This document shows, piece by piece, positions 20,584 to 46,514 of a stretch of DNA of 64,000 nt. This DNA is from Eledone cirrhosa (lineage: Eukaryota). A program made the position numbers and the translations under genes. Below the pieces are notes generated by a model. It did no database searches, was not told the origin of the DNA, and saw only the letters and a program-made list of their open reading frames with translations. Numbering within the stretch: the stretch's first letter is position 1; the number at the start of each line of letters is the position of its first letter. The stretch spans positions 13,330,001-13,394,000 of the forward strand of contig OZ024763.1 in assembly GCA_964016885.1 (NCBI GenBank), read 5' to 3'.

Positions 20584-20751
20584 ATGGTAGAAGTGTTTCA
20601 AACCCATATTAAGGATGTCTTCATCTGCAAAATTAAGAAATTCAATGACCACCGTGGTATGCTGTGTGAGTTATTCAACATGGAGAAATATCCTGAAGTG
20701 ATAAAGAAATTCTTTCCATCACAACAGATTACCTACGTGACTAATAAAAAG
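20584..20751 (+). CDS. rmlC: RmlC/D coding exon 1 ([32 protein letters not shown]...TNKK)
   Basis: ATG in gaaaATGG context, preceded by an acceptor cattggtcag ending at 20560. RmlC N-terminal F-x-D-x-RG-x-x-x-E motif. Donor AAG|gtaagc. Confidence 0.85.
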
Positions 20752-21895: not shown

Positions 21896-21927
<32 letters not shown>

Positions 21928-22453: not shown

Positions 22454-22491
<38 letters not shown>

Positions 22492-25400
22492 CTTCATTGT
22501 GTGATTGCTAAACAATTTGAAGTGGCTGAGGGCACTGTGCGCATTCATTCGTGATGATCTGAACATGTGCAAAGTTTGTTCCCAGAGTACTCAATGAAGA
22601 TCAAAGGCAGAGGCACATTGATGACAGCAGGGAGGTGGTCCGGTGGATTGTTTTGAATCCAAGTGTCCTTTAGTCTCTGGTAACCTGTGACAAGAGCTGG
22701 GTCTGCTGTTATGATCCACTGACCCAGAGACAATGCCCAGTGGAAACATCCTGACTCTCCAAGATCCAAGAAGACCAGGCAAAGCAAGTCCAATAGGAAG
22801 CTCATAATGATCCCATTCTTCAACAGCAAGGGCATCATCTACACCCAATGGGTTTGCCATGGCCAGACAGTCAACATAGGGTACTATGTAGAGGTTTTGA
22901 GGCAGTTCAGAAAGAGATTTCATCACAAGAAACCAGAACTCTTCAAGTCTGGTCGTGGCACCAGAACAATGCTCCCAGCCACCAATCCATCCTGCACCTT
23001 TTCTTCTTTTTCTTCTTTTTCATCATTTTCTATTTCTTTTTTCTTCATTTTTCTTTTTCTTCATTTTCTTCTTCTTGTTCTTCATCTTCTTCCTTCTGTC
23101 TTCTTTTTCTTCTTTTTCTTTCCTTTTCTTTTTCTTCTTTTTACTTTTTCTTTTTCTTTTCCTTTTTTTCTTTTTACTTTTTCTTTTTCTTTATTTTCTT
23201 CTTGTTCTTCATCTTCTTGTCTTTTTCTTTTTTTCTTTTTCTTCTTGTTTTTCGTTTTCTTCTTTTTCGTCTTCTTCTTGTTGTTCAGCTAGTTGCTTCT
23301 TACTCTCCCTCTCTCTCTCTCTCTCAGACAAACTATACAAATATTTCTCTCATATTTTAAAATCTATTTCCCTGCCTCCTCTCTCTCTATGTGCCACCCG
23401 CTCGTGCCACCCGCTCGTGCCACCCGCTCGTGCCACCCACTCGTGCCACCCACTCGTGCCATCAACACTGCAGCTAGCCCACCGTGGATTACACATCTCT
23501 CCATACTCGAAACTGTTGACCTGCGTGAAGGGTTCCGTCTATGACGTTGTGGTTGACAATCGACCTGATTCCAGTACATACCTGCAATGGGTTGGTAAAA
23601 CATTGTCCGAAGAGAATGGCTACCAGCTCCTTGTCCCGCCAGACTGTGGCCATGGTTACCTAGCACTAGAGGAAGGAAGTACCGTCATTTACTGTCAGGT
23701 CAGCATTCTCTTTTCATTTAGCTATTAAAAAGTTATTTTAATTTTGTTTTTTAAATTGTGTTTACTTAAAATATATTTGTTAATTTTAAATTGTTTTAAT
23801 TCAAATTTCTTTTTAAATTTTTAATATCTTTAATATTTAATTTATAGTTTTAAAAAATTATTAATAATTTTTAATTTTGAGGAATAATTTTTTTTTTTAA
23901 AGTTTATTCCTTTTTTATTCCTATTTTAAAAAATTAATTTTTATTTTTGAATATATTTTCTCATTTTTAATTTTCTATTCATTCTTAATTTGATTTTTTT
24001 TTTTTTTTTTTAATTATTTTAAAATTTTAAGTTTTTTCATTTTAACATTTTAAAAGGTTTTTGAATTTCAATTTTCTAATTTCCTTTCTTAACATTTACA
24101 TTATTCTATATCAGTGGTTCCCAACCATTTGTGTCCTATGCCCCACCTCATCTCAGACATTTTTCTGCCCCATTTTGATATAAAAACAGTGATGATCAAC
24201 TACAAAGTGTAAACTAATTGGTGTATGGGCGATGCCAGATGTACAATAACATGTGTGGAGGAGGTGAGACAAGAGTTTCTGACAGTAATGTCTACCAAAG
24301 TTGCCTTGCTGTAGGTGATGCCAGATGTACAATAACATGTGGTGGAGGTGAGACAGGAGTTTCTGACTGTAATGTCTACCAAAGTTGCCTTGGTGTAGGT
24401 GATGCCAGATACACAATAACATGTGTGGAGGAGGTGAGACAGGAGTTTCTGACAGTAATGTCTACCAAAGTTGCCTTGGTGTAGGAGATGCCAGATGTAC
24501 AATAACATGTGTGGAGGAGGTGAGACAAGAGTTTCTGACAGTAATGTCTACCAAAGTTGCCTTGGTGTAGGAGATGCCAGATGTACAATAACATGTGGTG
24601 GAGGAGGTGAGACAAGAGTTTCTGACAGTAATGTCTACCAAAGTTGCCTTGGTGTAGGAGATGCCAGATGTACAATAACATGTGTGGAGGAGGTGAGACA
24701 AGAGTTTCTGACAGTAATGTCTACCAAAGTTGCCTTGGTGTAGGAGATGCCAGATGTACAATAACATGTGTGGAGGTGGTGAGACAGGAGTTTCTGACAG
24801 TAATGTCTACCAAAGTTGCCTTGGTGTAGGTGATGCCAGATGTACAATAACATGTGGTGGAGGTGAGACAGGAGTTTCTGACTGTAATGTCTACCAAAGT
24901 TGCCTTGGTGTAGGAGATGCCAGATGTACAATAACATGTGGTGGAGGTGAGACAGGAGTTTCTGACAGTAATGTCTACCAAAGTTGCCTTGGTGTAGGTG
25001 ATGCCAGATGTACAATAACATGTGGTGGAGGTGAGACAGGAGTTTCTGACTGTAATGTCTACCAAAGTTGCCTTGGTGTAGGTGATGCCAGATGTACAAT
25101 AACATGTGTGGAGGAGGTGAGACAGGAGTTTCTGACTGTAATGTCTACCAAAGTTGCCTTGGTGTAGGTGATGCCAGATGTACAATAACATGTGTGGTGG
25201 AGGTGAGACTGGAGTTTCTGACAGTAATGTCTACCAAAGTTGCCTTGGTGTAGGTGATGCCAGATGTACAATAACATGTGGTGGAGGTGAGACAGGAGTT
25301 TCTGACTGTAATGTCTACCAAAGTTGCCTTGGTGTAGGTGATGCCAGATGTACAATAACATGTGGTGGAGGTGAGACAGGAGTTTCTGACTGTAATGTCT

Positions 25401-28400
25401 ACCAAAGTTGCCTTGGTGTAGGTGATGCCAGATGTACAATAACATGTGTGGAGGAGGTGAGACAGGAGTTTCTGACTGTAATGTCTACCAAAGTTGCCTT
25501 GGTGTAGGTGGTGCCAGATGTACAATAACATGTGGAGGAGGTGAGACAGGAGTTTCTGACTGTAATGTCTACCAAAGTTGCCTTGGTGTAGGTGATGCCA
25601 GATGTACAATAACATGTGTGGAGGAGGTGAGACAGGAGTTTCTGACAGTAATGTCTACCAAAGTTGCCTTGGTGTAGGTGATGCCAGATGTACAATAACA
25701 TGTGTGGAGGAGGTGAGACAGGACTTTCTGACTGTAATGTCTACCAAAGTTGCCTTGGTGTAGGTGATGCCAGATGTACAATAACATGTGTGGAGGAGGT
25801 GAGACAGGAGTTTCTGACAGTAATGTCTACCAAAGTTGCCTTGGTGTAGGAGATGCCAGATGTACAATAACATGTGGTGGAGGAGGTGAGACAGGAGTTT
25901 CTGACAGTAATGTCTACCAAAGTTGCCTTGGTATAGGTGATGCCAGATGTACAATAACATGTGGTGGAGGTGAGACAGGAGTTTCTGACAGTAATGTCTA
26001 CCAAAGTTGCCTTGGTGTAGGAGATGCCAGATGTACAATAACATGTGGTGGAGGAGGTGAGACAGGAGTTTCTGACAGTAATGTCTACCAAAGTTGCCTT
26101 GGTATAGGTGATGCCAGATGTACAATAACATGTGGTGGAGGTGAGACAGGAGTTTCTGACAGTAATGTCTACCAAAGTTGCCTTGGTGTAGGAGATGCCA
26201 GATGTACAATAACATGTGTGGAGGAGGTGAGACAGGAGTTTCTGACAGTAATGTCTACCAAAGTTGCCTTGGTGTAGGAGATGCCAGATGTACAATAACA
26301 TGTGGTGGAGGAGGTGAGACAGGAGTTTCTGACAGTAATGTCTACCAAAGTTGCCTTGGTATAGGTGATGCCAGATGTACAATAACATGTGGTGGAGGTG
26401 AGACAAGAGTTTCTGACAGTAATGTCTACCAAAGTTGCCTTGGTGTAGGAGATGCCAGATGTACAATAACATGTGTGGAGGAGGTGAGACAGGAGTTTCT
26501 GACAGTAATGTCTACCAAAGTTGCCTTGGTGTAGGAGATGCCAGATGTACAATAACATGTGGTGGAGGAGGTGAGACAGGAGTTTCTGACAGTAATGTCT
26601 ACCAAAGTTGTCTTGGTGTAGGAGATGCCAGATGTACAATAACATGTGTGGAGGAGGTGAGACAGGAGTTTCTGACAGTAATGTCTACCAAAGTTGCCTT
26701 GGTGTAGGAGATGCCAGATGTACAATAACATGTGGTGGAGGAGGTGAGACAGGAGTTTCTGACAGTAATGTCTACCAAAGTTGTCTTGGTGTAGGAGATG
26801 CCAGATGTACAATAACATGTGTGGAGGAGGTGAGACAGGAGTTTCTGACAGTAATGTCTACCAAAGTTGTCTTGGTGTAAGAGATGCCAGATGTACAATA
26901 ACATGTGGAGGAGGTGAGACAGGAGTTTCTGACAGTAATGTCTACCAAAGTTACCTTGGTGTAGGAGATGCCAGATGTACAATAACATGTGTGGAGGAGG
27001 TGAGACAGGAGTTTCCAACAGTAACTTGTTCCAAAGTTGCCTTGGTGTAAAAGTAATAAGATAAAACCTGAAGTTTGTTCTCATTAACATCATTTTCAAA
27101 TTGCCCCTTGAATATTCAAATTGCTACCTTGTGGGGCATGCATCTCATGTTGGGAATCACTGCTTTATATATACTATTATATTTTCATGGTAAAGGATTT
27201 ACCTCACATAATTATTTCACATAATACCAAATCTATGAGATTTTGATATTATTTATTTTGAGAGCAATACCTTAACATCAGTTTGAACGGTTAGTTACAG
27301 CCAGTTTGAATAGAAAGAGGTGAAAAAATTCTGGCCGGATATGGCTGGTTTAAATGCTAAAGGGTTAAATTTATTAAGTAAAAATCTAAATTCCATAAAA
27401 AAAAAACTGAAAATAAATCTTTTGATTTCTTTCTTTTTTTCTTTAGGGAGGTTGTTTCCTCCCATCACTTCCAGAGAAATCAATCAACTTGTTTGATCCC
27501 ATTGTCTCAATTGATTGGCCTCTCCTCAAGAACGTGAAGTCCCTCATCTCTGAAAAGGACATCATAGCCCCCTTCATAAATCATGAAAACCTAATCTTTC
27601 AAAAACATCGCAAAAGAATCTTGATTATTTCTGCAAAAGGGCAAGGTTAGCCATTTCATTATTTATTGATAATTTATTGATAATATTTTGATTAATTATC
27701 GGTTGATCATTTATTGATAACTTATTGATTGTTTATTGACAATCTGTTGACAGTCTATTTATTGACAGTCTGTTGACAGTCTGTTGACAGTCTGTTGACA
27801 GTCTGTTGGCAGTCTGTTGGCAGTCTATTGGTAGTCTGTTGACGGTCTGTTGGCAGTCTGTTGGCAGTCTGTTGGCTGTCTATTGGCTGTCTATTGGCTG
27901 TCTATTGGCTGTCTATTGGCTGTCTATTGGCTGTCTATTGGCTGTCTATTGGCTGTCTATTAGCTGTCTTTTGGCTGTCTTTTGACAGTCTTTTGACAGT
28001 CTATTGACTGTCTGTTGACAATCTATATACATATTTCAATGTCGTATAAGTTTTTAATGATATATACATTTGTGATTTACCACTCTCTAACATGTCTTCC
28101 TCTATTTCCAGTTGGTCAAACATTCTACAGGCTACTGGGGCAGTTCGATGACAAATATGTGGTTTTGGGGACGTATCACTCTGATCACGAGCCCCAGCAT
28201 TTCAAATTGGATCTGGAAACTGTTGCAAAGTACGGTTCAATTAACACTCTTTTCCTTCTCTTGTATTGTGGGCTAATTGGCAGAGTCATTAGAGTGTCTG
28301 TATTTCTTCTGGCTCTCTGAGTTCAAATCCCACCAATGATGATCAGCATTGTTTCTTTGGTCTCATCTGATGATCAGCTCCTTTCTTCTGCCAGTAGCTG

Positions 28401-30985
28401 TGACCAACAGACAGTATCAGCAATGAAAAGACCAATAGAAACATTGTTTCCCTGGTCTGATCTGATGATCAGCTCCTTTCTTCTGCCAGGAGTTGTGACC
28501 AACAGACAGTATCAACAATGGAAAGATCAATAGAAACATTGTTTCCTTTGTCTGATCTGATGATCAGTTCCTTTCTTCTGCCAGAAGTTGTGACCAACAG
28601 ACAGTATCAGCAATGGAAAGACCAGTGAAAACATTGTTTCTGAAGTGTGATCTGATGAACAGCTCCTTTCTTTTCCGTTTATATTTTTAGTGGCATCGTG
28701 ATGCTGGTGGTGGTGGTGATGGTGGTTGTGGTGATGAGGAGTGTTGGAGATGATGGTGGTGATAATAATAACTGTGGCGTTGGTTTTAATGATGATGTTG
28801 ATGATGATAGTAGTGATGATGACAATGGTGGTGGTGATGGTGATGGAGTGATAATGATGATAAGGTGTAGTAGGAAATGGTGATGATGATAATAGATGTG
28901 ATGGTGGTGCTGGAGATGATGGTGGAGGTGGTGATGACGATGACAGTAATGATGATGATGATGGTGGTGAGGGTTATGGTGGTGTTGGAGGTGATGATGA
29001 TGGTTCTGCCGATGATATTGACAAGATGGCTTAATCTCTCTTTTTCTAGGGACCCTTCCTCCATAGAACTGGTCCTAGATGCCTGTAAACCCCACATAGT
29101 CATAGTGTGTGGTGCTATGACCAATGTGAACCTCTGTGAATCAGAAACAAAAATGGTTTGTTGCTCACTTTCTTTACTAGTAGCTGTGATGGTGGTGGCA
29201 GTCTTGTTGTTGGTGGTGGTGTGTAATATGTATATCAACATCACCGTTTTACGTCCATTCTTCCACACCAGCATGGGTTAGATGAGTTGTCCTGTTGTGG
29301 GCAATGCTAGGTCAGGTGACCATGTTTTGCTCATCCAGAAGTGATTTTGGCTTGGTTTCTACTGCTGGATGCCCTTCCTCATTTGCAGTGAGTACTGGGT
29401 GATTTTTTTACTGGGGCGCCTACATGACCATTTTACAGTGAGTACTGGGTGCTTTTTACCATGACATAACCACTTTACAGTGTGGACTGGGTGATTCTTT
29501 TGTCATGACACCTACACGACCACTTTACAGTGTGGACTGGGTGATTCTTTTGTCATGACACCTACGCGACCACTTTACAGTGTGGACTGGGTGATTCTTT
29601 TGTCATGACACCTACACGACCACTTTACAGTGTGGACTGGGTGATTCTTTTGTCATGACACCTACACGACCACTTTACAGTGTGGACTGGGTGATTCTTT
29701 TGTCAAGACACCTACACAACCACTTTACAGTGTGGACTGGGTGATTCTTTTGTCATGACACCTACACGACCACTTTACAGTGTGGACTGGGTGATTCTTT
29801 TGTCATGACACCTACACGACCACTTTACAGTGTGGACTGGGTGATTCTTTTGTCATGACACCTACACGACCACTTTACAGTGTGGACTGGGTGATTCTTT
29901 TGTCATGACACCTACACGACCACTTTACAGTGTGGACTGGGTGATTCTTTTGTCATGACACCTACACGACCACTTTACAGTGTGGACTGGGTGATTCTTT
30001 TGTCATGACACCTACGCGACCACTTTACAGTGTGGACTGGGCGATTCTTTTGTCATGACACCTACGCGACCACTTTACAGTGTGGACTGGGTGATTCTTT
30101 TGTCATGACACCTACACGACCACTTTACAGTGTGGACTGGGCGATTCTTTTGTCATGACACCTACACGACCACTTTACAGTGTGGACTGGGTGATTCTTT
30201 TGTCATGACACCTACACAACCACTTTACGGTGGGAGGGGTTGGGGGCATAATGTCTATATGCTTCAGCTTCTGCCTGCACCTGTGGAAATTTGGGTCTTC
30301 TGTGTTACTGCGTAACGCCAGAGGTCTCGGTCTTGTGTCATCGCATTTGAAAGGTGCAATTTGGTAAGATCTGCGAATTGGCAGAGTTGTTAGAATGTCA
30401 GATAGAATGATTTGCGGTATTTGTTTCAACTATCTGCTCTCTCAGTTCAAATCCCACCAAGGTCAACTTTATATATATATATATATATATATTTCCTATA
30501 CGCTAGCTGCAAACGCCAGAGATATTAGACACTAGAGTTGTTTCCCTTTTCTCCTGTTGCATTATGGGCATCACTTGTGCAGTCAACACTCATAACACAT
30601 TTGCTGTTTGCTTGTACCAGTTGCTGTCTGACAGGTTTGCGGTTGTACTCTTGGCAGTGGAGACTCCTGGTGTCCTTGGCCCTAGGGCTACCTCTCTACT
30701 CACCACCATAGGCGCTGAGCTGGCCTGCCGCAGGTGTGAGCCTCGCGAGTTGGAATGGCTCTTCCAGCGCATTTCCCTTACCATCCTCTGGGGAAACGCC
30801 TTCTCTATTCTGTTTGTTGGGGCTGTGGGGAGGCCAGCACGTGGGACCCCATTTGCTCACCATATAGAGAGATGGGGAGGGCGACAGAGATGGAGGCAAT
30901 GACAGTGGGAGTCCCACCATTCCCACATCAAATGAAGCAAAACCGTCTAACCCATGTTAGCATGGAAGATGGACATTAAACGATG

Positions 30986-31032: not shown

Positions 31033-34000
31033 TCTGAAGACAGCATATATATGTGTAGGTATATATATTCCCTCTGATAGTTTGTAAAAATTTTACATAG
31101 ATCTATATAATATACATACCAACACACACATATATATCCTAGAAACGATCGTAAAATGATGAATTTTTTAATATAAGGAACTGTTTCTCTGTTTTTATTC
31201 ATTGTTTTTATTAATTTATATATATATATATATATATATATATGCTGATGATCTGGTTCTTATAGCAAAATCAGTAGAGGAGCTGGAGAATAAATTCTGG
31301 TTATGGAAACAGCAGTTGGAATCAAGAGGACTGAGAGTGAACCTAGCTAAGACAAAAGTGTTGATAAGTAGAAGAGAGGACAAAACCCTGATTCCATCAG
31401 GGAAATGGCCATGTTCGATATGCAGAAAAGGAACTGGCATAAATTCCATAAAATGAATGCAATGCAGATCTTGGGTACACAAGAGATGTAGTGGGATAGC
31501 AGGCAAACTGACACGTAGGGAAAACTATGTATGCAGTAGATATACAGGGAAAGTTGGTGGTAGTAATAGCAGTGATAGACACATTTTTCCAATGCAGGTG
31601 GGTTCTATAGAAGTGGTTGATACCTTCCGGTACCTAGGTGATCAGATTAGCATGGGAGGGGGTGTTCCGAGGCCATAGTATCTAGAATAAGGATGGGTTG
31701 GAAGAAGTTTAGGGAGCTGCTTCATCTGTTGACAAAGAAGGGTTTCTCCCTGCATATGATGTCTGTGTGAGATGCGCGATGCTGCATGGTAGTGAGACAT
31801 GGGCAGCAACTGCAAAGGATTTGTGACGGCTGGAGAGAAATGAAGAAAGCATGCTCCGTCAGATGTGCAATGTCAATGTGCGTGAACGACCAAGCATAGA
31901 CGAGTTGAGAAAGAAACTGGGAATAAGAGGGATAAGTTGTGTGTGCAGGAGAGAAGACTGAGATGGTATGGACATGTGATGCGCATGGAGGATGACCGCT
32001 GGGTAAAGAAGTGCCAAGAAATCCCAGTTGAAGGAAGACGCAGTAGAGGAAGACCACGAAAAACATGGGCGGAGGTGGTGAGAACAGACCTCAGATCGCT
32101 GAAGCTCACGGTGGAGATGACGAAGGACCGTGACAAGTGAAGAGATGCTGTGCTGAATAGGACCCGTCCCACCCTTGCAAGCAGGGAAAAGCGGACGTAA
32201 AATGATGATGATGATTATATACACACACATGTATGTAAAAGGTAAACAGAAATAACAACACAATCGGTACAGTATATGGAAGGAATATATTAGGTTAACG
32301 CTTGATATAGCAGGAAGAGGGTCTAGTCCTTCATCAGAAGAAAGAATGAGAAATAAGATAGATTGAGGGGACGGGCAGGTTGGAATTGGAAAAAAATGTC
32401 TTTAGATAAAAATAACAGGTCCATTCATGTTTAATATAGAAATGGCTTCTACAGGACTAGAACTGTTTCATTCAAAGAAAATCATCAGGAAAGCCCAATG
32501 ATGATTTCCTTTGAATGAAGCAGTTTTAATCCTGTAGAAGCCATTTGTATATTAAACATTATATACTCTGCTATGTATTGAGTACGTTACTTACTGTGTT
32601 TACCCACGATTGAAGCTGAGACACACCATTTTGTATTTCTTTTCTTATATATATATATATATATCATGACTCATACACTGTTCATTTTCCTGACGTTTGT
32701 ACATTATTCTATGTACTATACATACACTTTTTGATGAGTTGTAGTGCACCTGAGCACTGTACACAATATTTCATTATTATTATTATTATTTTAATTCTTA
32801 AATTGAGTCTGGCAAACCCTATTGTTCATAGTTAGTATTTTTTTCACCCTAGTGAATCTGGTCCCTTACAATTTGAACACATATATGTATATGTCTGTGT
32901 TTATCTCTCTTTTATATTCAATCACAACCTGGAAAAATTTAATTCATATATATATATATATATATCATCATATATATATATATGATGATGAAATGATGAT
33001 ATATATATATATATATATATATTATTATTAGAAATGTAAGTTATCGCCGTATTTTGACTAAAGAAATTAAAGAGATTATTTAGTCTGATAGTGGGGTTAA
33101 GAACCCTCGGAGAAATGGAAAAAGATGAGTATTGACGTACATGTACGTCAATACTCATCTCGAGGGAGTCTGTAGAAAGCAAATGTTTTACATCGTTACT
33201 CTATCAGGGACTGCTTCGAACTGCCTTTCGCCAGGTCTAAGACGGGCTATTTATATCTGTCGCTTCCTCTGTCCTCTGCCTTGAGAACCACTGGGGTGAC
33301 CTTAAGAGATCACCCATGCATAGACTTGTTTATACCAAAAGGAGGTGACCCAGAATTTGACTGTTAAATGTCAGCCAGGGTCATGGTGTGGACAGATTTC
33401 ACTAGAAACACACACACACACACACGTCATTTCTCTAATATATGTGTACATATGTATAAGTTTCAGCTCAATAGTTCCTGTTACCATCTCAAATTATTTG
33501 CTCCCTTTCATTCATTCCAGGCTTATTTGATTAACAAAGACAGTATTGCTCAGCTGGGTGCCCAGGTAAAGAAACGTGGAGCCAGAATGATCTACTTCTC
33601 AACCAACTATGTCTTCAGTGATCCACTTACACCAGAGTTACGCTCTCAACAAAAAATTGATATGTTAGGTATGTGTTTCACTCAACCCTTTCATTACCAT
33701 ATATCTAATGAAAGACACTGTCTATGTCTTTAACCCTTTCACTACCATATATCTAATGAAAGACACTGTCTATGTCTTTAACCCTTTCATTACCATATTT
33801 CTAATGAGAGACATTGTCTATGTCTTTAACCCTTTCATTGCCATATTTCTAATGAAAGACACTGTCTATGTCATTAACCCTTTCATTAACATATTTCTAA
33901 TGAAAGACACTGTCTATGTCATTAACCCTTTCATTACCATATTTCTAATGAAAGACACTGTCTATGTCATTAACCCTTTCATTACTATATTTCTAATGAA

Positions 34001-35708: not shown

Positions 35709-35940
35709 CCTCCCTCCCTCTCTTCTCTCTATCTCTCTGTCTTTCTACAGCCAGCAATATTGGTCTGAAGAACAATACCTTAACATCAGTATGAGTGGCC
35801 AGTTACAGCCGGTTTGAATAGAAAGAGGTGAGGGAATTCTGGCTGGATATGACCGGTTTAAATGCTAAAGGGTTAACCCACTCACCCTCACTCTTTCTCT
35901 TCCATTCACCGTCGCTCTCCCTTATTCTCTCCCTCCCTCA

Positions 35941-36017: not shown

Positions 36018-39000
36018 CCTCCCTCCCTCTCTTCTCTCTATCTCTCTGTCTTTCTACAGCCAGCAATATTGGTCTGAAGAACAATACCTTAACATCAGTA
36101 TGAGTGGCCAGTTACAGCCGGTTTGAATAGAAAGAGGTGAGGGAAATCTGGCTGGATATGACCGGTTTAAATGCTAAAGGGTTAACCCACTCACCCTCAC
36201 TCTTTCTCTTCCATTCACCGTCGCTCTCCCTTATTCTCTCCCTCACTCACTCTCTCTCTCTCTCCCCCCCTCTCTCTCTCTCTCTCTCTCTCTTCTTCTC
36301 TCTTTCTATCTCTCTCTCTTTCTACAGCCAGCAAAGTTGGTCTGAAGGAAGATTCAACACCAAACTGTGTTAATGTCTATGCTAAGAGTAAGCTAGCCTC
36401 TGAAGAACTCTTTAAAGACGACCCCAGTTGCCTCATTATACGCACTTCTGTAGGTAGTCCTTTCATCTTTTTATTGTATTTTTGTTTTTGCTTTTTTTTT
36501 TTTTTATTAGTGGACTGTGGTCATGCTGGGGCACCACATTCTTTTTTTTTTTTTTTACTTTTTACAAGTCAAGTTTCAGTCACAGGACTGTGGCCATGAT
36601 CGGGCACTGGGGCACCACATTTTTTTTTTTTTTACTAGTTTCAGTCACGTGACTGTGGCCATGCTGGGGCACCACATTCTTTTTTTTTCATTTTTTTTTT
36701 ACTGGTTTCAGTCATTAGATTGTGGCCATGCTGTGGCACTATTCAGTGTAACAATACTAAAACTTTACCATCTTACAATCTGTACTGGGTGTATTTTATT
36801 ATAGAACCAACACTACCACTTTACAGAGTGTACTGGGTGTATTTTATTATGGAACCAACACTACCACATTAGAGAATCCAGAGTGCATTATATTGTGACA
36901 TCAGCTCTAAAATGTTACAGAGTGTATTAGGTGCTTTTTATCAGAGTGTACTGTGTACATTTTATCAGGGCATCAACACTACCACTTTACAGAGTCTACT
37001 CGGTGCATCTCGTGGTACCAGCATTACTACTTTAAGAGCAAGCTAGGTGCAATTTTATTGTGGCACCAGCACTATCACTTTACAGAGTGTACTAGGTGCA
37101 TTTTATTGTGGCACCAGCACTATCACTTGAAGAGTGTACTAGGTGCATTTTATTGTAGCATCAGCACTGTCACTTTACAGAGTGTACTAGGTGCATTTTA
37201 TTGTAGCATCAGCACTGTCACTTTACAGAGTGTACTAGGTGCATTTTATTGTAGCATGAGCACTGTCACTTTACAGAGTGTACTAGGTGCATTTTATTGT
37301 GGCACCAGCACTCACTTTACAGAGTGTACTAGGTGCATTTTATTGTGGCACCAGCACTGTCACTTTACAGAGTGTACTAGGTGCATTTTATTGTGGCACC
37401 AGCACTATCACTTGAAGAGTGTACTAGGTGCATTTTATTGTAGCATGAGCACTGTCACTTTACAGAGTATACTAGGTGCATTTTATTGTGGCACCAGCAC
37501 TCACTTTACAGAGTGTACTAGGTGCATTTTATTGTGGCACCAGCACTGTCACTTTACAGAGTGTACTAGGTGCATTTTATTGTGGCACCAGCACTATCAC
37601 TTGAAGAGTGTACTAGGTGCATTTTATTGTAGCATGAGCACTGTCACTTTACAGAGTATACTAGGTGCATTTTATTGTGACACCAGCACTCACTTTACAG
37701 AGTGTACTAGGTGCATTTTATTGTGGCACCAACACTATCACTTTACAGAGTGTACTAGGTGCATTTTATTGTGGCACCAGCACTATCACTTGAAGAGTGT
37801 ACTAGGTGCATTTTATTGTGGCACCAGCACTGTCACTTTACAGAGTTGGTACCAGCACTAGAGAGGTTATCATACTCAGAAAGACTGACGAGTATTGTCT
37901 CCATTCAATTGCCAACCTCTTTACAGAGTGTACCGGGTGCGTGATATAGTGTCTCACCAACACTAGAGTTGTTTTTATTTGAAGTATGTGTATAATTTTA
38001 TTTTCTGTGAATATTTTCAGGGTGTGTATGGACCAGATATTAAAAAAAAGAACTTTGTGTACCAAGTTATAGGAAACCTCCTGGCAGGGAACAAGTTGAC
38101 TCTGCTCACAGATGAAGTAAATTCCTTATTTTTCATTTTAACCCTCTAGCATTTAAACCAGCCATATCCGGCCAGAGTTCTCTCACCTCTTTCTGTTCAA
38201 ACCAGCCGTAACTAGTCACTCATACTGATGTTAAGGTATTGTTCTCACAATTAATATCAAAATCTCATAGATTTAATATTATGTGAGATAAATTGAGGCA
38301 CATGGCTTAGTGGTTAGAGCATTGGCCTTGCAATCGAAAGGTTGTGAGTTCAATTCTCAGACCGGGTGATGTGTTGTTGCCTTGAGCAAGACACTTTATT
38401 TCACATTGCTCCAGTTTACTCAGCTGTAGAAATGAGATGATAGGGACTGCGGTCCCTATCATTCCACTGCAAAGTGGTCATGGAGGTGCCACGGCAAAAA
38501 AGCACCCAGCACTCACTGTAAATGTGGTTGGTGTTAGGAAGGGCATCCAGCTGTAGAAAACCCGCCAGATAGTCCTATGCGAGCAAGACAACCACTCTTG
38601 CCTCAAGTGGGAAAACCCCCGTCCAAACCCATGCAAGCGTGGAACAGGGACGTTAAACGATGATGATGATGATGATGAAGGGATGAACACAGATATAACT
38701 ATATATGTGTTCCAATTGCAAATGACCGAGTTAGCTCATTTGAAATTGGAACACATGTAACACTGTAAACGTGGTTGGTGTTAGGAAGGGCATCCAGCCG
38801 TAGAAAACCCGCCAGACAGTCCTATACGAGCAAGACAACCAATCTTGCCTCGCATGGGACAATTCCCGTCTAAACTCATGCTAGCGTGGAAGATAGACGT
38901 TAAACGATGATGATGATGTATACTTATATCTGTGTTCACCCCTCTCATATATCCAATTGTATTACATGGCTCGGAAATATTCCCTTCTTTGAGCTATTTA

Positions 39001-42000
39001 ATTGTAAAAGACTATTTTGAGTTTCTAACTCAATATATGATATATATATATATATAAACATGGAGGCACATGGCTTAGTGGTTAGAGCATTGGACTTGCA
39101 ATCGAAAGGTTGTGAGTTCAATTCTCAGACCGGGTGATGTGTTGTTTCCTTGAGCAAGCCACTTTATTTCCCATTGCTCCAGTTTACTCAGCTGTAGAAA
39201 TGAGATGATAGGGACTGGGGTCCATATCATTCCACTGCAAAAGTGGTCGTGGAAGTGCCACAGCAAAAAAGCACTCAGCACTCACTGTAAATGAGGTTGG
39301 TGTTAGGAAGGGCATCCAGCTGTAGAAATCAGGCCAGAATCAGTTCCCGTCCCACCCTTGCAAGCAGGGAAAAGCGGACGTAAAATGATGATGATGATGA
39401 TGATGATGAAACAAATGTAAGTGCATTTTGCTACTTTCTGCTTACACAGAAAATGAGCACCAGTTTCCTCTCAGATTTTACTATTTCATTGCAGATCCAG
39501 TGTCCAGTTTACAGTGAGGACCTTTGTAGAGCTACATCCCTACTGATGGAGAAAGGGTGTTCAGGAATTTACCATATTGTAGGACCTGAGGCATTCAACA
39601 AATGCTCATTTGCAAAAGAGATTGTAAGTTATTTATGTTGTGGTGTTGATGATGATGATGATTATGGATGTATGGATGTATGTGTGTATGTGTGTGTGCT
39701 TGTGTGTGTATGTGTGTATGTGTGTGTGCTTGTGTGTGTATGTGCATATGTAGATCCCAAGTGATATTGGGAGTAATCAAAGTAACTAAGGTAATCAATA
39801 CATTAGTAGAGTGAGAACAACTAAATTTAATAGAGAAATGGCTTCTACAGGACTAGAACTGGTTCATTCGTAAGAAGTCATCAGGAATGCCGGATGACAT
39901 AATAAGTCGTTAATATTTATAGGTTTCATAGTGGTTGGGGGTGGTAGTGGTGATTGAGGCATATTTTTAGGATAGTAGCCCAAGAAGAAAACAGCCTCTC
40001 TATGGGTCTGACAATAATGTCTGGGACTTCAGTAAGTTGGAGGGCCTCTATCATCCAAGAGTGGGGAACAGAATTGAAAGCTTTCCTGTAGTCCAGCCAG
40101 ACTATAGTCATATTCCTCCTAAGTTGTCGCACCTCCGACATCGCAGTTTTGTTGATTAGGAGTTGTTCAGCACATCCCCAAACCCTTTTCTTTCCAGGCG
40201 CTTGTTCATCTGTGATGATGTTATTATTTTCACAGTGATCTTGGAGGAATAGGTTCAGGCAGGCTGTATACATCTTATACATCAGGTTCTGGCATGTAAT
40301 GGATCGGTAGTTTTTTGCCAAGTGGGTGTCTTTGTTCTTGGGGACCAGTAACGTTTGTGCTAATGTCAACCATTCTGGTATAAGTGTATCTCCCTTAAGA
40401 ACTTGTTGGTAGAGGTCAGTAAGATACCTCCGATAGAATATTAGTTTTTTGTACCAGTAGCCGACAATCATGTCTCTTCCTGGTGTTTTCTTATCTTGGA
40501 GTTTTTCTATCACAGTCTCAAGGGTACCCTCACTTATTTCGTATGTTTTTGTTGTAGTGTAGGAACAATAGTTCTTTCGGATTTCTCTTAGCCGCACTGC
40601 ATCTTGATTGAAATTCTTCTTTTCACCCCATATTTGTATGTATGTGTGTATGTATGTATGTATATATATATATGTATATATATATGTATATATGTATGTA
40701 TGTATATATATATGTATGGTCGGGTCGTTGGCTACTAAATTGGCAACCTCACCAAGTTTACTTGGTGAGGAGGGTGATTTTGGACACCCTGCTGGACAAA
40801 AAACAAAACCTGACAAAAGGAGGAAGAAATCATAAGAGTCAAACGGTCATCCCAAAGTGTGTAAATATGTATATAGATATATACATGTGTATATATATAT
40901 ATGTATATATGTGTATACTTGTATACACATATATACAAGGGTGGTGGATTGGCAGTATCGGTAGAGGGTCGGACGTCATGCTTTCCAGCATAGTTACGTC
41001 CCTTTACGATCTGAGTTCAAATCCCGCCGAGGTTGACTTTGCCTTTCATCCTTACGGGGTCGATAAAATAAAGTACCAGTAATGCACTGGTAATTGCTGG
41101 CCTTGTGCCTAAAGTAGAAACAATTATATGTGTATACTTGTATACAAATGTATATATATGCGCGGGGACATAGAAATAATTGGGCTGGATATCTGATTGC
41201 GCAGTTAAACCACTGGGAGTGAAGGACCCCTAGCCTTTGTCAGGGCAATCTTCTAGGAAAAGGCAACTCAGGAAACTGGGATAACTCCGATATAAAACCT
41301 GCGGCTCAGTAGTTACCGATGATGTTGTTCTTTTCTTCTTTTCGGGTTATAGCTACTGTCGCTCAGAGAGTGGGATTGGCTCAGTGCACAGTCTTTCCTC
41401 ACTTTAAAAAAAATCTTCACGCACAGGCATTGCACGATAGAATTAATTGATAATTATTAATAATGTTATATCGTGCAATGGCCATACTCGATAACGAAGG
41501 GGCAGCCATCATCATATATGTATGTATGTATGTATATATATATAGATATAACGCCTGCAACCCTGATGGTATCCATTGATGTTGACTTGTTCTTCTTTTT
41601 GGTAAATATCATCTTGGTTAAGAGAGTGGGACTGGCTTTGTGCAGTGCCTTAGCTCACTATAAAAGCTTCACGGCACAGGCATTGCTTTGTATCTGGAGA
41701 TCTCTGCACTTGTCGTCACATGGTACCATGGGCCCAGCACTATGTGTCAATAATTGTCACAAGTGTAGTGTTTGTACCAGAGTTTTCAAGTCGCTGGCTG
41801 GACTAAAAAGTCACACTCGTTCAGCGCATCTGTAGGGGTTCTCCTACATGGATATAAAGTAGTGGCCGTACTCGAAAACGAGTTGGCAGCCACCATATAT
41901 ATATATACATATATATATATATGTATGCATGTATATATATATATATATGTATGCATGTATATATATATATATATATATATATATGCATGTATGTATATAT

Positions 42001-43403
42001 ATATATATGTATGCATGTATGTATATATATGTATGCATGTATGTATATATATATATATGTATGCATGTATGTATATATATGTATGCATGTATATATATAT
42101 ATATATATATGTATGCATGTATGTATATATATGTATGCATGTATGTATATATATGTATGCATGTATGTATATATATGTATGCATGTATATATATATATAT
42201 ATATGTATGCATGTATATATATGTATGCATGTATATATATGTATGCATGTATATATCTATATGTATGCATGCATGTATATATATGTATGCATGCATGTAT
42301 ATATATATATGTATGTATGCATGTATATATATATATGTATGCATGTATATATATATATGTATGCATGTATATATATATATGTATGCATGTATATATATAT
42401 ATATATGTATGCATGTATATATATATATATATGTATGCATGTATATATATATATATGTATGCATGTATATATATATATATATATATGTATGCATGTATAT
42501 ATATATATATATGTATGCATGTATATATATATATGTATGCATGTATATATATATATATGTATGCATGTGTATATATATATATATATATGCATGCATGTAT
42601 ATATATATATATATGTATGCATGTGTATATATATATATATATATATGTATGCATGTATATATATATATGTATGCATGTATATATATATGTATGCATGAAT
42701 ATATGTATGCATATATGTATGCATGTATATATATATGTATATATATATATATATATAAATATATATATAAAGTATACACACACACACACACACACACACA
42801 CTCTTTCTGACCTGTGCCTAAATATAAAACCAATAATTATTTTGTGAGGTTTGTTATAACTGTTTTTATTGTTGCTGAAGACTTAGTTATTGGATTATTG
42901 TGGTAGAGGTTTATATGGAAGTTTATCCTTCTCTGAAATTTCCAGGCTGAGTTTTTCAACCTCAACACTTCGTTGATCATTCCAATGACATCGGAAGAAC
43001 TCAAGTTGGCCGCAGAAAGGCCAAAGTTTGCGGCGTTGTCGACAGAGAAGTTCCGGTAAGTAACATCAACATCATCATTATCATCATCATCATTATCATC
43101 ATCATCATCATCAACACCAGCATCATTGCCAACAGCATCATCATCATCATCATCATCATCATTATCATCATTATCATCATTATCATCATTATCATCATTA
43201 TCATCATCATCATCATCATCAACACCAGCATCATTGCCAACAGCATTATCATCATCATCATCATTATCATCATCATCATCATTATCATCATTATCATCAT
43301 TATCATCATTATCATCATCATCATCATTATCATCATTATCATCATTATCATCATTATCATCATCATCATCATCATCAACACCAGCATCATTGCCAACAGC
43401 ATT

Positions 43404-43465
<62 letters not shown>

Positions 43466-43537: not shown

Positions 43538-43591
<54 letters not shown>

Positions 43592-46514
43592 TATCATCAT
43601 TATCATCATTATCATCATTATCATCATTATCATCATTATCATCATCATCATTATCATCATCATCACTGCCATCAACACTATCATCATCATCATCACTACC
43701 ACCAACACTATCATCATCATCATCATCATCACCAATATCACCATCTCCACTATCATAATCACCGTTGGCATGGTTTCTAAAGCTGGACGTCCTTCCTAAT
43801 GCTGACCAGTTTGTAAAGTGTCCCAGGTGAATTTTATTATGACATCGTCACTACCACTTTACAGAGTGTACTGGGTGCATTTCATCATGACACCAACACA
43901 ACCACATTAGAGAGTGGGCTGGGTCATGGCACTAGTACTACCACTTTATAGAGTGGGCTGGGTGCATTTTATTGTGGCACCAGGACTCTCCTTTTACAGT
44001 GTTTACTAAGTGTATTTTATCATAGAATCAGCACTACCACTTTATAGAGTGTAGTGGGTGCGTTTTATTGTGGCACCATTATAACCACGTCACAAAGTGT
44101 ATTGGGTGTATTCTATCGTGGCACTAGCACTGCTACATTAGAATATCCTGGCTGCATTTTATCTTGGCATCAGCACTATTACCTTACAACCACTTTACAG
44201 AGTGTACTGGGTGTACTTCATAATGACCATTAGCACTAAATCTTTACTGAGTGTACTAGTTTTCATTTTATCTTGGCCCCAGTACTAAAAAAGTTAAGTT
44301 GTTGACTGGACCAAAGGGTTCTCTCTACGTTATGTTTTCTCTGTTTTTCCATTACTTTACCACATATAGTATAAACATATTTGTGAAGGTGTGTGGCCTG
44401 GTAAATATGTTGGACTTAAGATCATAATATCATGGGTTCGATTCCTTAGACTGGGTTGTGTGTTGTGTTCTTGAGCAAAACACTTCATTTCACGTTGCTC
44501 CAGTACACTCAGCTGAAAATGAGTACCAGCAATAGCTGTGGGGTGGGACTTAAACCTGTGATAGACTGACAACCTGTCAAGAGGGAAATATTGTACTCTT
44601 GGCTGCTTAACCACAAGGAAACCAGGATAAGCAGCAGCCTAATGAGCATCAGAGCTTAAGACAGGCTTTAACTTAACATTATACATCATCATCATCATTT
44701 TACGTTCGCTTTTCCCTACTTGCAAGGGTTGGACAGGTCCTATTCAGCTCATCATCTCTCTACTTGTCACAGTCCTTCGTCGTCTCCTCCGGGAGTTTCA
44801 GCGATCTGAGGTCTGCTCTCACCACCTCCGCCCATGTTTTTCGTGGTCTACCTCTACTGATTCTTCCCTCCACATATACTTTACATGAAGCCAGTCCATC
44901 ACAGAGTTATGGCCAGCATGTAGTATTGTACTCTCAGCTGCTTAACACCAAGCAAACTTGGATGAGCACCGGATTAATCAGCTTCGGAGTTTGGAACAGA
45001 CTTTAACCCTGCTTCTGACTGACGTCCTATCCAGGGGTGAGTCCTGTACTCTGTCACTTAACACCAAGGAAACTAGGATAAGATCCAGGCTAATGAGCTT
45101 CGGAGTTTGGAACAGACTTTAACCCTGCATCTGACTGACGTCCTATCCAGGGGTGAGTCCTGTACTCTGTCACTTAACACCAAGGAAACTAGGATAAGAT
45201 CCAGGCTAATGAGCTTCGGAGTTTGGAACAGACTTTAACCCTGCATCTGACTGACGTCCTGTCCAGGGGTGAGTCCTGTACTCTGTCACTTAACACCAAG
45301 GAAACTAGGATAAGATCCAGGCTAATGAGCTTCGGAGTTTGGAACAGACTTTAACTCTGCATCTGACTGACGTCCTGTCCAGAAGTCCTGTACTCTGTCA
45401 CTTAACACCAAGGAAACTGATGAGCCTCTAAGATCGAGAGACAAACTTTAGACATTTTATTTTTAATCATATACAATTTTATGTATTTATGTGCCTGTTT
45501 TTCAATATTCTTGATGTGCAATCATATATTGAAACAACTATTGTTATATTATCATCATCATCATCATCATTTTACATCCACTTTTCCCTGCTTGCAAGGG
45601 TGGGATGGGTCCTATTCAGCACAACATCTCTCCATTCATCACGGTCCTTTGTCATCTCATCCATGAGCTTCAGCAATCTGAGGTCTTATTTCACCACCTC
45701 CGCCCATGATTTTCGTGGTCTTCCTCTACTGTGTTTTCCTTCCACTGGGATGTCTTGGCACTTCTTTACCCAGCGGTCGTCCTCCATGCACACATGTCCA
45801 TACCATCTCAGCCTTCTCTCCTGCACACTACAGCTTATCCCTCTTATACCCAGTTTCTCTCTCAACACATCACATGTCCATACCATCTCAGCCTTCTCTC
45901 CTGCACACTACAGCTTATCCCTCTTATACACAGTTTATATAAATTTAAATAATTTTAAAAGCCATACAATGCATTAGAAAATTAAAGGTGGCAAGATAAC
46001 AATAGAATCTTACCTTAGCAAATTTTATAATCCCAAATATTTTTGGGCTTAAAAACCCATTATCAAGGGAGTATCTCTGTAATGGTGTTAAAGGATTGGT
46101 CAGAGATTAGTTATTGTTAAGAAGGCAGATTTAATTTAAATGTAAAGATATTGTTATATTTGGGGACGATCATGTTGCCAGTATTGCTAATAAAAAGAAA
46201 CACACACACTGTATGATTTTCACTTTATTTTTATTATTTATTAGTTAGTTCGTCAAAGTTCTTTTGTCACACATTCTGTAACCTCCTCAATGTCTATCTG
46301 TTCTCATTTATGCCTCCTCTTCTTTCTGGTCTTAATCTGTTATTCCATCTCGTCTTTAACATGACCATTCCCAAATATACCAACATGTGTAAATTGTTTT
46401 ATTTCTATTTCCAGCCAAGAGTTCCCAGGCTTTAAGTTCCACAGTGTCTCTGATGCTCTGAAAGACTGGCGGCAGACACAACTGAAATGTGGCAAGATTT
46501 TCCCTGAACTGTGA
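20584..46514 (+). CDS. rmlC-rmlD: Spliced bifunctional RmlC/RmlD fusion (dTDP/NDP-4-dehydrorhamnose 3,5-epimerase plus 4-reductase), 11 coding exons, 506 aa
   Basis: Exons 20584-20751, 23474-23698, 27447-27645, 28112-28229, 29050-29155, 33521-33668, 36328-36449, 38021-38116, 39495-39623, 42946-43055 and 46415-46514 total 1521 nt. All introns are GT-AG, phases are compatible (0,0,1,2,0,1,0,0,0,2) and there is no internal stop. RmlC motifs: [43 protein letters not shown]. RmlD motifs: [52 protein letters not shown]. Confidence 0.9.
20860..21120 (-). mobile_element. Helitron-like non-autonomous fragments
   Basis: Minus strand starts TCTATATATCTAAAA followed by (GTCT)n. 20864-20890 matches an internal part of the 14819 Helitron. 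Confidence 0.5.
21380..21442 (+). ncRNA. Type I hammerhead ribozyme motif in RmlC/D intron, sense orientation
   Basis: ttttat-CTGACGA-g..gtactg/cagtac..c-GAAA-tatata-TA-ataaaa. Confidence 0.7.
21753..21807 (-). ncRNA. Type I hammerhead ribozyme motif
   Basis: Minus strand reads actgc-CTGAAGA-ggtcacagcca aaga tggctgtcacc-GAAA-tatata-TA-gcagt. Perfect stem I and long stem II. Confidence 0.75.
22540..22990 (+). mobile_element. Mariner transposase remnant
   Basis: [35 protein letters not shown]...GQTVN..YY.EVL..FR and HQNNAP motifs, with frameshifts. Confidence 0.85.
23474..23698 (+). CDS. rmlC: RmlC/D coding exon 2, catalytic cupin core ([36 protein letters not shown]...[17 protein letters not shown])
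   Basis: Acceptor ctgcag|CTA and donor CAG|gtcagc. Hallmark RmlC RGLH, K, DVVVDxR, HGY and Y residues. Confidence 0.92.
24112..27162. mobile_element. hAT (Charlie-like) MITE enclosing a 2.8-kb tandem array
   Basis: TIRs CAGTGGTTCCCAAC / GTTGGGAATCACTG. 8-bp flanks ttctatat / ctttatat match at 6 of 8 positions with central TA. Confidence 0.75.
24230..27050. repeat. 84-87-bp minisatellite, about 33 units
   Basis: Unit gatgccagatgtacaataacatgtg(tg)gaggaggtgagacaggagtttctgacagtaatgtctaccaaagttgccttggtgtagg. Confidence 0.97.
27447..27645 (+). CDS. rmlC-rmlD: RmlC/D coding exon 3: RmlC C-terminus (IDWP...ISEKD), linker, start of RmlD Rossmann fold ([11 protein letters not shown])
   Basis: Polypyrimidine tract with ttag|GGA acceptor, and donor CAAG|gttagc. 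Open frame; not in the ORF track because it lacks a start codon. Confidence 0.88.
27740..28020. repeat. 12-bp tandem repeat
   Basis: gtctgttgacag drifting to gtctattggct-type units. Confidence 0.9.
28112..28229 (+). CDS. rmlD: RmlC/D coding exon 4 ([11 protein letters not shown]...[10 protein letters not shown])
   Basis: Acceptor ttccag|TT completes GQVG; donor AA|gtacgg. The LD motif is at the RmlD-like position. Confidence 0.82.
28345..28672. repeat. 95-bp tandem repeat, about 3.5 units
   Basis: acattgtttc recurs at 28441, 28536 and 28631. Confidence 0.85.
29050..29155 (+). CDS. rmlD: RmlC/D coding exon 5 ([35 protein letters not shown])
   Basis: Acceptor tttttctag|G, donor ATG|gtttgt. 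Matches the RmlD PDxIVNAAAxTxVDxAE segment. Confidence 0.87.
29470..30228. repeat. 50-bp minisatellite, about 15 units
   Basis: Unit cactttacagtgtggactgggtgattcttttgtcatgacacctacacgac. Confidence 0.97.
31241..32215 (+). mobile_element. 5'-truncated RTE-clade LINE
   Basis: [32 protein letters not shown] and GRPRKTW motifs; (GAT)n tail; internal stops. Confidence 0.9.
33521..33668 (+). CDS. rmlD: RmlC/D coding exon 6 (AYLINKDS...[14 protein letters not shown]...DML)
   Basis: Acceptor ttccag|GCT, donor TAG|gtatgt. AYxIN and STxYVF motifs. Confidence 0.9.
33683..35255. repeat. 48-bp minisatellite, about 33 units
   Basis: Unit ttaaccctttcattaccatatttctaatgaaagacactgtctatgtca. Confidence 0.97.
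35363..35573 (+). mobile_element. piggyBac-like MITE family
   Basis: 14-bp TIR CCCTTTAGCATTTA / TAAATGCTAAAGGG with a TTAA flank. Other copies at 1297-1502, a split copy at 24090/27170-27368 and 38138-38290(-). A second TTAA-CCC family lies at 46748-47140. Confidence 0.7.
35465..36347 (+). repeat. About 300-bp tandem triplication including the exon-7 splice acceptor
   Basis: Three units of MITE end, (CT)n and ctacag|ccagcaa..tggtctgaag. Confidence 0.92.
36328..36449 (+). CDS. rmlD: RmlC/D coding exon 7 ([27 protein letters not shown]...LIIRTS)
   Basis: Acceptor ctacag|CC, donor TCT|gtaggt. SDR catalytic YxxxK (YAKSK). Confidence 0.9.
36770..37850. repeat. 49-51-bp minisatellite
   Basis: cactttacagagtgtactaggtgcattttattgtggcaccagcact units, with a four-unit higher-order pattern. 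Confidence 0.92.
38021..38116 (+). CDS. rmlD: RmlC/D coding exon 8 ([32 protein letters not shown])
   Basis: Acceptor ttttcag|GGT, donor GAA|gtaaat. RTSxVYG...NFV...D motif. Confidence 0.88.
38294..38680 (+). mobile_element. tRNA-derived SINE family B with LINE-type (GAT)n tail
   Basis: tggcttagtggttagag A box, gagttcaattctc B box, ccttgagcaagacactt core, and gttaggaagggcatccag...(gat)n tail. Copies at 39061-39410 and 49402-49742, related copy at 44385-44680. Tail-only copies at 1-150, 9955-10200, 14490-14730, 20270-20430, 29238-29460, 38760-38918 and 49155-49395. Confidence 0.82.
39495..39623 (+). CDS. rmlD: RmlC/D coding exon 9 ([13 protein letters not shown]...[20 protein letters not shown])
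   Basis: Acceptor ttgcag|ATC, donor ATT|gtaagt. PxYxxDL...GIYH...FAxxI motif. Confidence 0.9.
39955..40630 (-). mobile_element. Reverse-transcriptase fragment of an R4/Dong-like non-LTR retrotransposon
   Basis: [21 protein letters not shown]...NYRSITC...MYK, EQLLIN and [15 protein letters not shown] motifs. Confidence 0.8.
41895..42800. repeat. (TA)n/TATGCATG compound microsatellite; similar arrays at 18770-18935, 19535-20130, 55600-56310, 57355-58075 and 63727-64000; (GT)n at 47381-47506
   Basis: Direct inspection of the sequence. Confidence 0.95.
42946..43055 (+). CDS. rmlD: RmlC/D coding exon 10 ([36 protein letters not shown])
   Basis: Acceptor ttccag|GCT, donor CG|gtaagt. AxRPxxxxLxxxK motif. 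Confidence 0.88.
43062..43760. repeat. (ATC/ATT)n trinucleotide array just after the exon-10 donor
   Basis: Direct inspection of the sequence. Confidence 0.95.
44980..45420. repeat. 116-bp tandem repeat, about 4 units
   Basis: gagcttcggagtttggaacag at 45095, 45211 and 45327. Confidence 0.9.
45555..45935 (-). mobile_element. RTE LINE 3' fragment; a second short copy at 44685-44870
   Basis: LRWYGHV...GRPRKSW on the minus strand, with the same tail as the 31241 element. Confidence 0.85.
46415..46514 (+). CDS. rmlD: RmlC/D terminal coding exon 11 ([33 protein letters not shown])
   Basis: Acceptor ctatttccag|C matches phase 2; ends in TGA at 46512-46514. Length fits the RmlD C-terminal helix. 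Confidence 0.72.

Follow-up and report, generated by a model that had tools for sequence, protein, structure and literature searches.

Introduction

The fusion enzyme RmlCD of the haptophyte Prymnesium parvum, in which an RmlC-type epimerase is joined to an RmlD-type reductase, makes both thymidine diphosphate (TDP)- and uridine diphosphate (UDP)-L-rhamnose (PMC6556577, Wagstaff et al. 2019), and in that work RmlCD was located mainly in haptophytes and Gymnodiniaceae, and in none of the green algae examined. The same net reaction on a UDP substrate is carried out in plants, fungi and viruses by the NRS/ER (UGER) and RHM proteins (PMC6556577, PMC9741107). In nematodes, the epimerase RML-3 is a stand-alone protein, reportedly transferred from bacteria and paired with a different reductase (PMC10473587, Pandey et al. 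2023), and the same authors state that, of the metazoans known, nematodes alone encode an L-rhamnose pathway, and that other eukaryotes appear to lack the RML-3-type epimerase. A genome survey, in turn, gives the rml pathway as absent from eukaryotes (bioRxiv 854612), and the downstream pathway of the animal dehydratase TGDS has been called unidentified (PMC13080230). Here, we describe a gene of the RmlCD type in the octopod Eledone cirrhosa, located at positions 20584-46514 of a window of 64,000 nucleotides, the window being the whole stretch of DNA analysed (assembly GCA_964016885.1, contig OZ024763.1, positions 13,330,001 to 13,394,000, forward strand). It is a single-copy, host-encoded, eukaryotic-family gene with an intact open reading frame (ORF), its splice junctions being predicted from the DNA. 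We predict, with a probability of roughly 0.6, that its product is a bifunctional nucleoside diphosphate (NDP)-4-keto-6-deoxyglucose 3,5-epimerase/4-reductase, working in a route from UDP-glucose via UDP-4-keto-6-deoxyglucose to UDP-L-rhamnose.

Structure of the gene

Eleven exons joined by their coordinates give a predicted ORF of 1521 nt, with 506 codons plus TGA and no internal stops, and the ten introns, of 466-4365 nt and with no N inside, all run from GT to AG. They interrupt the frame after codons 56, 131, 197, 236, 272, 321, 362, 394, 437 and 473, in phases 0, 0, 1, 2, 0, 1, 0, 0, 0 and 2, respectively. Pfam profiles applied exon by exon match PF00908 (RmlC) in exons 1-3 and PF04321 (RmlD) in exons 5, 6, 7, 9 and 10, with the profile positions in order. 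In addition, the annotated Octopus sinensis protein P0001, which was retrieved using exon 3 alone and therefore serves as an independent check of the exon model, matches all 11 exons colinearly (tblastn, E 6e-40 to 4e-6). The eleven exons, ten GT-AG introns and uninterrupted 506-residue frame, as well as the fusion of an RmlC cupin to an RmlD short-chain dehydrogenase/reductase (SDR), had been proposed in a preliminary description made from the letters of the window alone, and both claims are borne out by these results. The features are as follows (aa, amino acids).

20584-20751, + strand: exon 1, aa 1-56, with the start codon and, in the RmlC N-terminus, Asp22/Arg24; PF00908 E 1.6e-5
23474-23698, + strand: exon 2, aa 57-131, RmlC core with Arg60, His63, Lys69, His116 and Tyr129; PF00908 E 3.6e-23
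27447-27645, + strand: exon 3, aa 132-197, RmlC end (Asp169), linker and first part of the RmlD Rossmann motif; PF00908 E 0.05
28112-28229, + strand: exon 4, aa 198-236, RmlD Rossmann fold; 62% identity to P0001, no Pfam match alone
29050-29155, + strand: exon 5, aa 237-272; PF04321 E 0.001
33521-33668, + strand: exon 6, aa 273-321, with the catalytic Thr300 and, directly after it, the octopod-type Asn301; PF04321 E 7.5e-5
36328-36449, + strand: exon 7, aa 322-362, YxxxK motif Tyr339/Lys343; PF04321 E 0.0013
38021-38116, + strand: exon 8, aa 363-394, substrate-binding subdomain; 74% identity to P0001, no Pfam match alone
39495-39623, + strand: exon 9, aa 395-437; PF04321 E 0.0028
42946-43055, + strand: exon 10, aa 438-473; PF04321 E 0.057
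46415-46514, + strand: exon 11, aa 474-506, TGA stop; 55% identity to P0001 (E 4e-6), no Pfam match alone
46637-46642, + strand: candidate polyadenylation signal, the first AATAAA 3' of the stop

The fusion point sits within exon 3, and since the boundary between RmlC and RmlD is inside one exon, the halves cannot be two genes. A pseudogene was likewise rejected, and so was bacterial contamination, given ten spliceosomal introns carrying host repeats. The ORF is intact and conserved from Octopus (71%) to the Sepia-cluster proteins (47-50%). The host origin already claimed in the preliminary description is upheld. In the whole 3.0-Gb genome there is a single PF00908 match, which is the window gene. 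Upstream of the true exon 7, its acceptor and about 20 of the first exon bases recur in two decoy copies at 35742-35880 and 36051-36190 (+ strand), both of which reach stop codons; these decoys may stem from tandem duplication at this place or from the assembly, as an artefact, and could affect splicing.

Relatives and comparison with the described enzymes

The window protein is 71% identical to the full-length fusions of O. sinensis and O. vulgaris, 62% to that of Argonauta hians, 48-51% to two Logan clusters, one of which includes a Sepia pharaonis protein, 35% to a Branchiostoma fusion (XP_019648018.1) and 31% to that of Styela clava, with partial orthologue records also in O. bimaculoides and Sepia pharaonis. 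Databases name these orthologues MAT2B-like, dTDP-4-dehydrorhamnose reductase, SpsK-like or uncharacterised, so that they are already public under automatic, misleading or partial names, and the enzyme type itself is known. The gene is unexpected in its host but not unique to this genome, being shared by O. sinensis, O. vulgaris, O. bimaculoides, Argonauta, Sepia pharaonis, Branchiostoma and Styela. Full-length relatives of 503 aa lie whole on Logan contigs of 1.8-2.8 kb, and contigs so short, for an intron-rich gene, suggest that the transcripts of these relatives are spliced. When 1.84 billion representatives were searched with a profile, the 13 best further full-length or near-full matches were P0016-P0028. 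Those with a name belong to Branchiostoma, Micromonas pusilla or Pycnococcus/Pseudoscourfieldia clusters, and two others of the 13 are eukaryote-collection records. No named animal besides Branchiostoma occurs among these 13, so that the distribution looks very patchy, although most of the rows carry no species name and the coverage of animals in the sequence collection is uncertain.

The tie to the assayed enzyme goes through one of these family members, P0020. When P0020 is compared by eye with the Prymnesium RmlCD sequence that the PMC6556577 supplement gives, about four-fifths of the first ~200 residues agree, including one run of 27 identical residues. P0020 falls in the same family as the window gene, in the sister clade. 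The window protein and Prymnesium RmlCD share domain order, length class, catalytic residues and a short loop; they differ in the animal host, in the octopod residues Ser193 and Asn301, and by an identity of about 34% (measured to P0020). The cephalopod fusions also have a short insertion after the STxY motif, unlike Prymnesium RmlCD. RmlCD is also carried by Micromonas pusilla and Pycnococcus records (P0167, P0172), in contrast with its absence from the green algae treated in PMC6556577.

With bacterial RmlC (TIGR01221, PF00908) and RmlD (TIGR01214, PF04321), the window protein has folds and catalytic residues in common; it differs from them in being fused, in scoring below both equivalog cut-offs, in a shorter His-to-Lys loop and probably in using UDP. 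This loop has 5 residues in 17/17 family fusions and 8-9 residues in 15/16 outgroup fusions. With the nematode RML-1 to RML-4 pathway it shares an animal host and an RmlC-type epimerase in an intron-bearing gene, but unlike RML-3 it is a fused enzyme of a eukaryotic family; the nematode sequences are not part of our trees. The NRS/ER and RHM proteins, unlike RmlCD, have no cupin and catalyse the two steps with a single SDR domain. In the case of MAT2B, the likeness is confined to the RmlD-like SDR fold, as MAT2B has no cupin; whole P0001 matches human MAT2B at E 5.5e-17, and the genome has its own MAT2B at C3:251.96 Mb, one exon of which matches the human protein at E 1.9e-30. A MAT2B identity was therefore rejected on the extra cupin, the separate MAT2B gene and its distant branching, and the MAT2B name on orthologues is a misannotation.

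Catalytic residues and predicted function

In the RmlC half, Arg24, Arg60, His63, Lys69, His116, Tyr129 and Asp169 are invariant in 18/18 full-length rows of the alignment, as are Tyr339 and Lys343 in the RmlD half, where Thr300 is also kept. We take His63, Lys69, Tyr129 and Asp169 to be the RmlC catalytic residues and the Arg residues to be substrate-binding, and the alignment with Salmonella RmlC 1DZR (sequence E 7.5e-24) supports these roles. RmlC works as a homodimer with shared active sites. In RmlD the catalytic triad is Thr/Tyr/Lys (PMC4832382), and it is present in the window protein as Thr300, Tyr339 and Lys343. As for the fold, the model of the O. sinensis orthologue from a 49-row alignment reached a predicted local distance difference test (pLDDT) score of 93.9 and a predicted template modelling (pTM) score of 0.93, and superseded an earlier model from a 7-row alignment, whose cupin half was poor (pLDDT 63.5). 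The best structural match to the SDR half of the 49-row model is RmlD 1vl0 (Z 34.8, root-mean-square deviation 1.9, 281 aligned), with MAT2B structures just below (Z 33.0, tied within about 2), and the model's cupin half is confidently all-beta, the structure match lists being filled by the SDR half.

Partners for such an enzyme were sought in the genome, a check proposed at the outset. A TGDS-like 4,6-dehydratase gene lies at C4:127.10-127.14 Mb on the minus strand, in nine matching segments (L124-L126, L130-L135) whose exons were found and not fully assembled, and its protein has a His aligned with Tyr208 of Streptomyces venezuelae 1R66. This position is tied to UDP preference, with His as the UDP type (PMC9741107), and human and zebrafish TGDS are reported to make UDP-4-keto-6-deoxyglucose. 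RmlA was not found among the three PF00483 matches in the genome, which are GMPPB-like and eIF2B-gamma-like, in a search that is weak on short exons. The UDP-type His and the lack of an RmlA match together favour a UDP route. The NDP-L-rhamnose chemistry proposed earlier stands as likely, with the nucleotide more likely UDP than deoxythymidine diphosphate (dTDP). Rhamnose mutarotase (PF05336) gave no genome match, which is not evidence of its absence. The genome also has genes that, by their motifs, we presume to be GMDS-like and UXS1-like. As a separate observation, identical translated stretches of one SDR, which we take to resemble threonine dehydrogenase, occur at C3:262.33 Mb and C9:11.27 Mb, one of them in a 304-aa open frame and possibly a retrocopy.

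In the proposed route, the animal's TGDS-like dehydratase would convert UDP-glucose to UDP-4-keto-6-deoxyglucose, RmlCD's cupin half would then invert C3 and C5, with His63 as base and Tyr129 as acid, as the conserved residues suggest, and the SDR half, through Thr300, Tyr339 and Lys343, would use NAD(P)H to reduce C4, yielding UDP-L-rhamnose, which may serve as donor for some cephalopod glycan. The window protein has no obvious signal peptide and is probably cytosolic.

Several points weigh against this reading. The GxxGxxG cofactor motif has its first Gly replaced by Ser193 in the window protein and in 3/3 other octopods, at a position that is Gly in 45/49 rows, the three Ser rows all being octopods; likewise, Asn301 replaces the acidic residue after the catalytic Thr, an Asp-to-Asn change, in 3/49 rows, all octopods, in addition to the window protein. 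Both changes are common to the window protein, Octopus and Argonauta and not found in the Sepia-cluster proteins, and GxxGxxG is intact in the Sepia-cluster, amphioxus, Styela and algal rows, so that cofactor or sugar binding may differ in octopods. All six proteins scanned, P0020 included, fall below the rmlC and rmlD NCBIfam equivalog cut-offs (TIGR01221, 155.75 bits, against 114.6 for P0001 and 113.7 for P0020; TIGR01214, 224.05 bits, against 159 and 205.4), where the TIGR01221 score lowers the case for a bacterial-type RmlC and not for a protein that works like RmlC. Identity to the assayed type is low, P0020 being 34% identical to the window protein, and among the sugars handled by homologous RmlC and RmlD folds are also heptose and allose. 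The endoplasmic reticulum (ER) and Golgi are the reported site of human TGDS, which has a very low maximal rate, and with a slow TGDS in that place and an RmlCD lacking an obvious signal peptide, access to the substrate is not assured. The absence of RmlA is itself weak, because short exons escape the genome search, as those of the window gene did with PF04321. Nor did a rhamnosyltransferase or transporter come to light, in an analysis that had no usable query for the transferase. Finally, no report of rhamnose made by cephalopods surfaced in the literature searched, at the level of listings.

Three other readings were weighed. The fusion might make a different NDP-6-deoxyhexose, such as 6-deoxy-L-talose if C4 is reduced in the opposite sense, or an N-acetylated analogue via a keto sugar derived from UDP-N-acetylglucosamine, as the 34% identity to the assayed clade, the other sugars handled by homologous folds, the highly variable position after the RTS motif and the octopod-only Asn301 next to the catalytic Thr would allow; this we consider rather unlikely, given that the sole assayed family member makes L-rhamnose and that rhamnose enzymes head the matches both in sequence and in structure. 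We find it improbable that the octopod reductase half is weakened or a scaffold, leaving an epimerase-only or regulatory protein with the decapodiform, amphioxus and algal copies fully active. The octopod-only Ser193 and Asn301 stand at near-invariant positions, and MAT2B, which is thought to act as a scaffold, comes close under RmlD in structure, but Thr300, Tyr339, Lys343, Gly196 and Gly199 are all kept, identity to O. sinensis over the SDR exons is 55-76%, and the true MAT2B is encoded elsewhere in the genome and branches far off. Quite improbable in our judgement is a role of RmlCD bound to the TGDS product and its removal rather than to L-rhamnose use: the TGDS product has such a role in mammals, the genome has TGDS-like and UXS1-like genes, and no cephalopod rhamnose glycan surfaced in the literature, but removal requires a reductase alone, a conserved 3,5-epimerase suggests that an L-sugar is in use, and vertebrates cope without an RmlCD gene. 

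Evolutionary origin

On the sequence comparisons, the window gene is an old member of the eukaryotic RmlCD family, to which prasinophyte algae and a protein closely related to the assayed Prymnesium enzyme also belong. All trees were built without near-duplicate cluster members, and with three rows trimmed. In the full-length tree (37 rows, careful mixture model), 25 family rows, P0020 among them, split at 100/99 from 12 outgroup fusions, and the window protein is sister to two Octopus proteins, followed by Argonauta and then the Sepia-cluster pair, as fits vertical descent in coleoids. The gene has been present since at least the octopod-decapodiform split, and the simplest account of its presence in amphioxus too is inheritance from an older common ancestor. 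For the animals as a whole, we lean slightly towards descent with heavy loss, and regard as a somewhat less probable account that separate transfers from marine microbial eukaryotes (algae or protists) reached cephalopods, amphioxus and Styela.

The evidence on these two accounts is divided. In the full-length tree, the cephalopods, P0016 and Branchiostoma group together at 95/98, apart from a 12-row clade of Micromonas, Pycnococcus and P0020 at 95/95, whereas Styela, on a long branch, lies outside the other animals, as separate transfers would have it; forcing all animals together costs 8.3 log-likelihood units with an approximately unbiased test p-AU of 0.06, which is marginal and does not reject animal monophyly. 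The trees of the single halves, another check proposed from the start, set the RmlC half apart from the 61 named prokaryotes and MAT2B at a distance, but leave the amphioxus-cephalopod link less firm than in the full-length tree. The quick RmlC tree (126 rows) does not join amphioxus to the cephalopods, and the quick RmlD tree (177 rows, LG+G4) places amphioxus and P0016 with algae (97) and the cephalopods outside, both in favour of transfer. In contrast, the careful mixture tree for RmlD, with 51 rows picked from the quick tree and a bootstrap not fully settled, groups amphioxus, P0019, P0016 and the cephalopods at 94/87; P0019 falls inside, and the cephalopods, P0016 and amphioxus alone form a clade in 16% of its bootstrap trees, which again speaks for transfer. 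The very patchy distribution, with Branchiostoma as the only named animal among P0016-P0028, points the same way, while in the mixture-model trees no animal copy stands beside a particular algal donor. P0016 and P0019 are themselves full-length fusions branching with animal copies, the latter encoded on a 357-kb contig, and both may mark further animal lineages.

A direct transfer from a bacterium to cephalopods, or contamination, we consider very improbable as the origin of the gene. Both domains are of bacterial type, bacterial RmlC-RmlD fusions exist in sequence collections and are also described in bioRxiv 854612, and the RmlD half sits among stand-alone reductases that are possibly prokaryotic. 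Against such an origin stand the ten introns with their host repeats, the short loop of the family fusions, and the quick RmlC tree, where the window protein falls in a 34-row set split at 95 in the Shimodaira-Hasegawa-like approximate likelihood ratio test (SH-aLRT) from a 92-row set holding all 61 named prokaryotes. Moreover, no fused ORF was found in 110 prokaryotic and viral loci, taken with narrow RmlC-half patterns as the 80 kept of 462 prokaryote relatives plus 30 viral. Thus, of the origins first proposed, the retained and the transferred gene both stand, and direct bacterial transfer is the least likely, the nearest non-animal kin being eukaryotic RmlCD.

Significance

The presence of an intact RmlCD not just in cephalopods but in a pair of invertebrate chordates challenges the nematode-only view of animal rhamnose synthesis, offers a candidate original partner for animal TGDS, and bears on rhamnose as a non-self signal in invertebrates. 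Rhamnose is such a signal for invertebrate rhamnose-binding lectins. In the literature searched, which covered few subscription papers, no listed paper dealt with an RmlCD from cephalopods, from amphioxus or from tunicates; the supplements of PMC10473587 have 0 occurrences of Octopus, Branchiostoma, Styela, Sepia or Prymnesium, and tunicate and amphioxus genome and transfer papers (PMC13390645, PMC7540406, PMC13350694) have no mention of the gene in the passages found. Rhamnose-making by non-nematode animals thus appears to be an implication unreported in that literature. A wider proposal, which we put forward tentatively and hold to be doubtful, is that a TGDS plus RmlCD pathway to UDP-L-rhamnose was already present in the ancestor that protostomes and deuterostomes last shared and is still run by cephalopods, amphioxus and some tunicates, with undiscovered rhamnosylated self-glycans, and that RmlCD disappeared from vertebrates, where TGDS stayed behind as an orphaned first step and later found use as a UXS1-rescue enzyme. 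Loss of TGDS causes Catel-Manzke syndrome.

Other fusions and features of the window

Some further proteins extend the range of fusions. P0027 (868 aa) is a triple fusion of RmlC, RmlD and an RfbH/DegT-like domain, hinting at dideoxy-sugar routes for some family members. In P0095, P0134, P0162, P0077 and P0089, a short-loop RmlC is fused to a different SDR, which we take to resemble NRS/ER, and P0095 adds the start of a dehydratase domain; these fusions recall the rhizarian RmlC-NRS/ER fusion described in PMC6556577. Viral contigs of 110-509 kb (L091-L095, one labelled GVMAG) encode, at 3001-3501 of these loci, an unfused RmlC of 185 aa whose place in the tree is with the short-loop type of eukaryotes, and this large-virus RmlC is a possible vehicle for transfer among eukaryotes.

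Within the window, no sugar-pathway neighbour genes were found in the 34 of 135 filtered ORFs scanned, which gave only reverse-transcriptase fragments and weak zinc-finger matches. Decayed reverse-transcriptase fragments resembling long interspersed nuclear elements (LINEs) lie in intron 5 (31172-32137, + strand) and intron 9 (39929-40846, - strand), and minisatellite arrays are plentiful, for example at about 24230-27050, 29450-30230 and 33680-35250. At 58965-60878, a long low-complexity triplet-like repeat yields, on either strand, open frames several hundred codons long and is probably non-coding.
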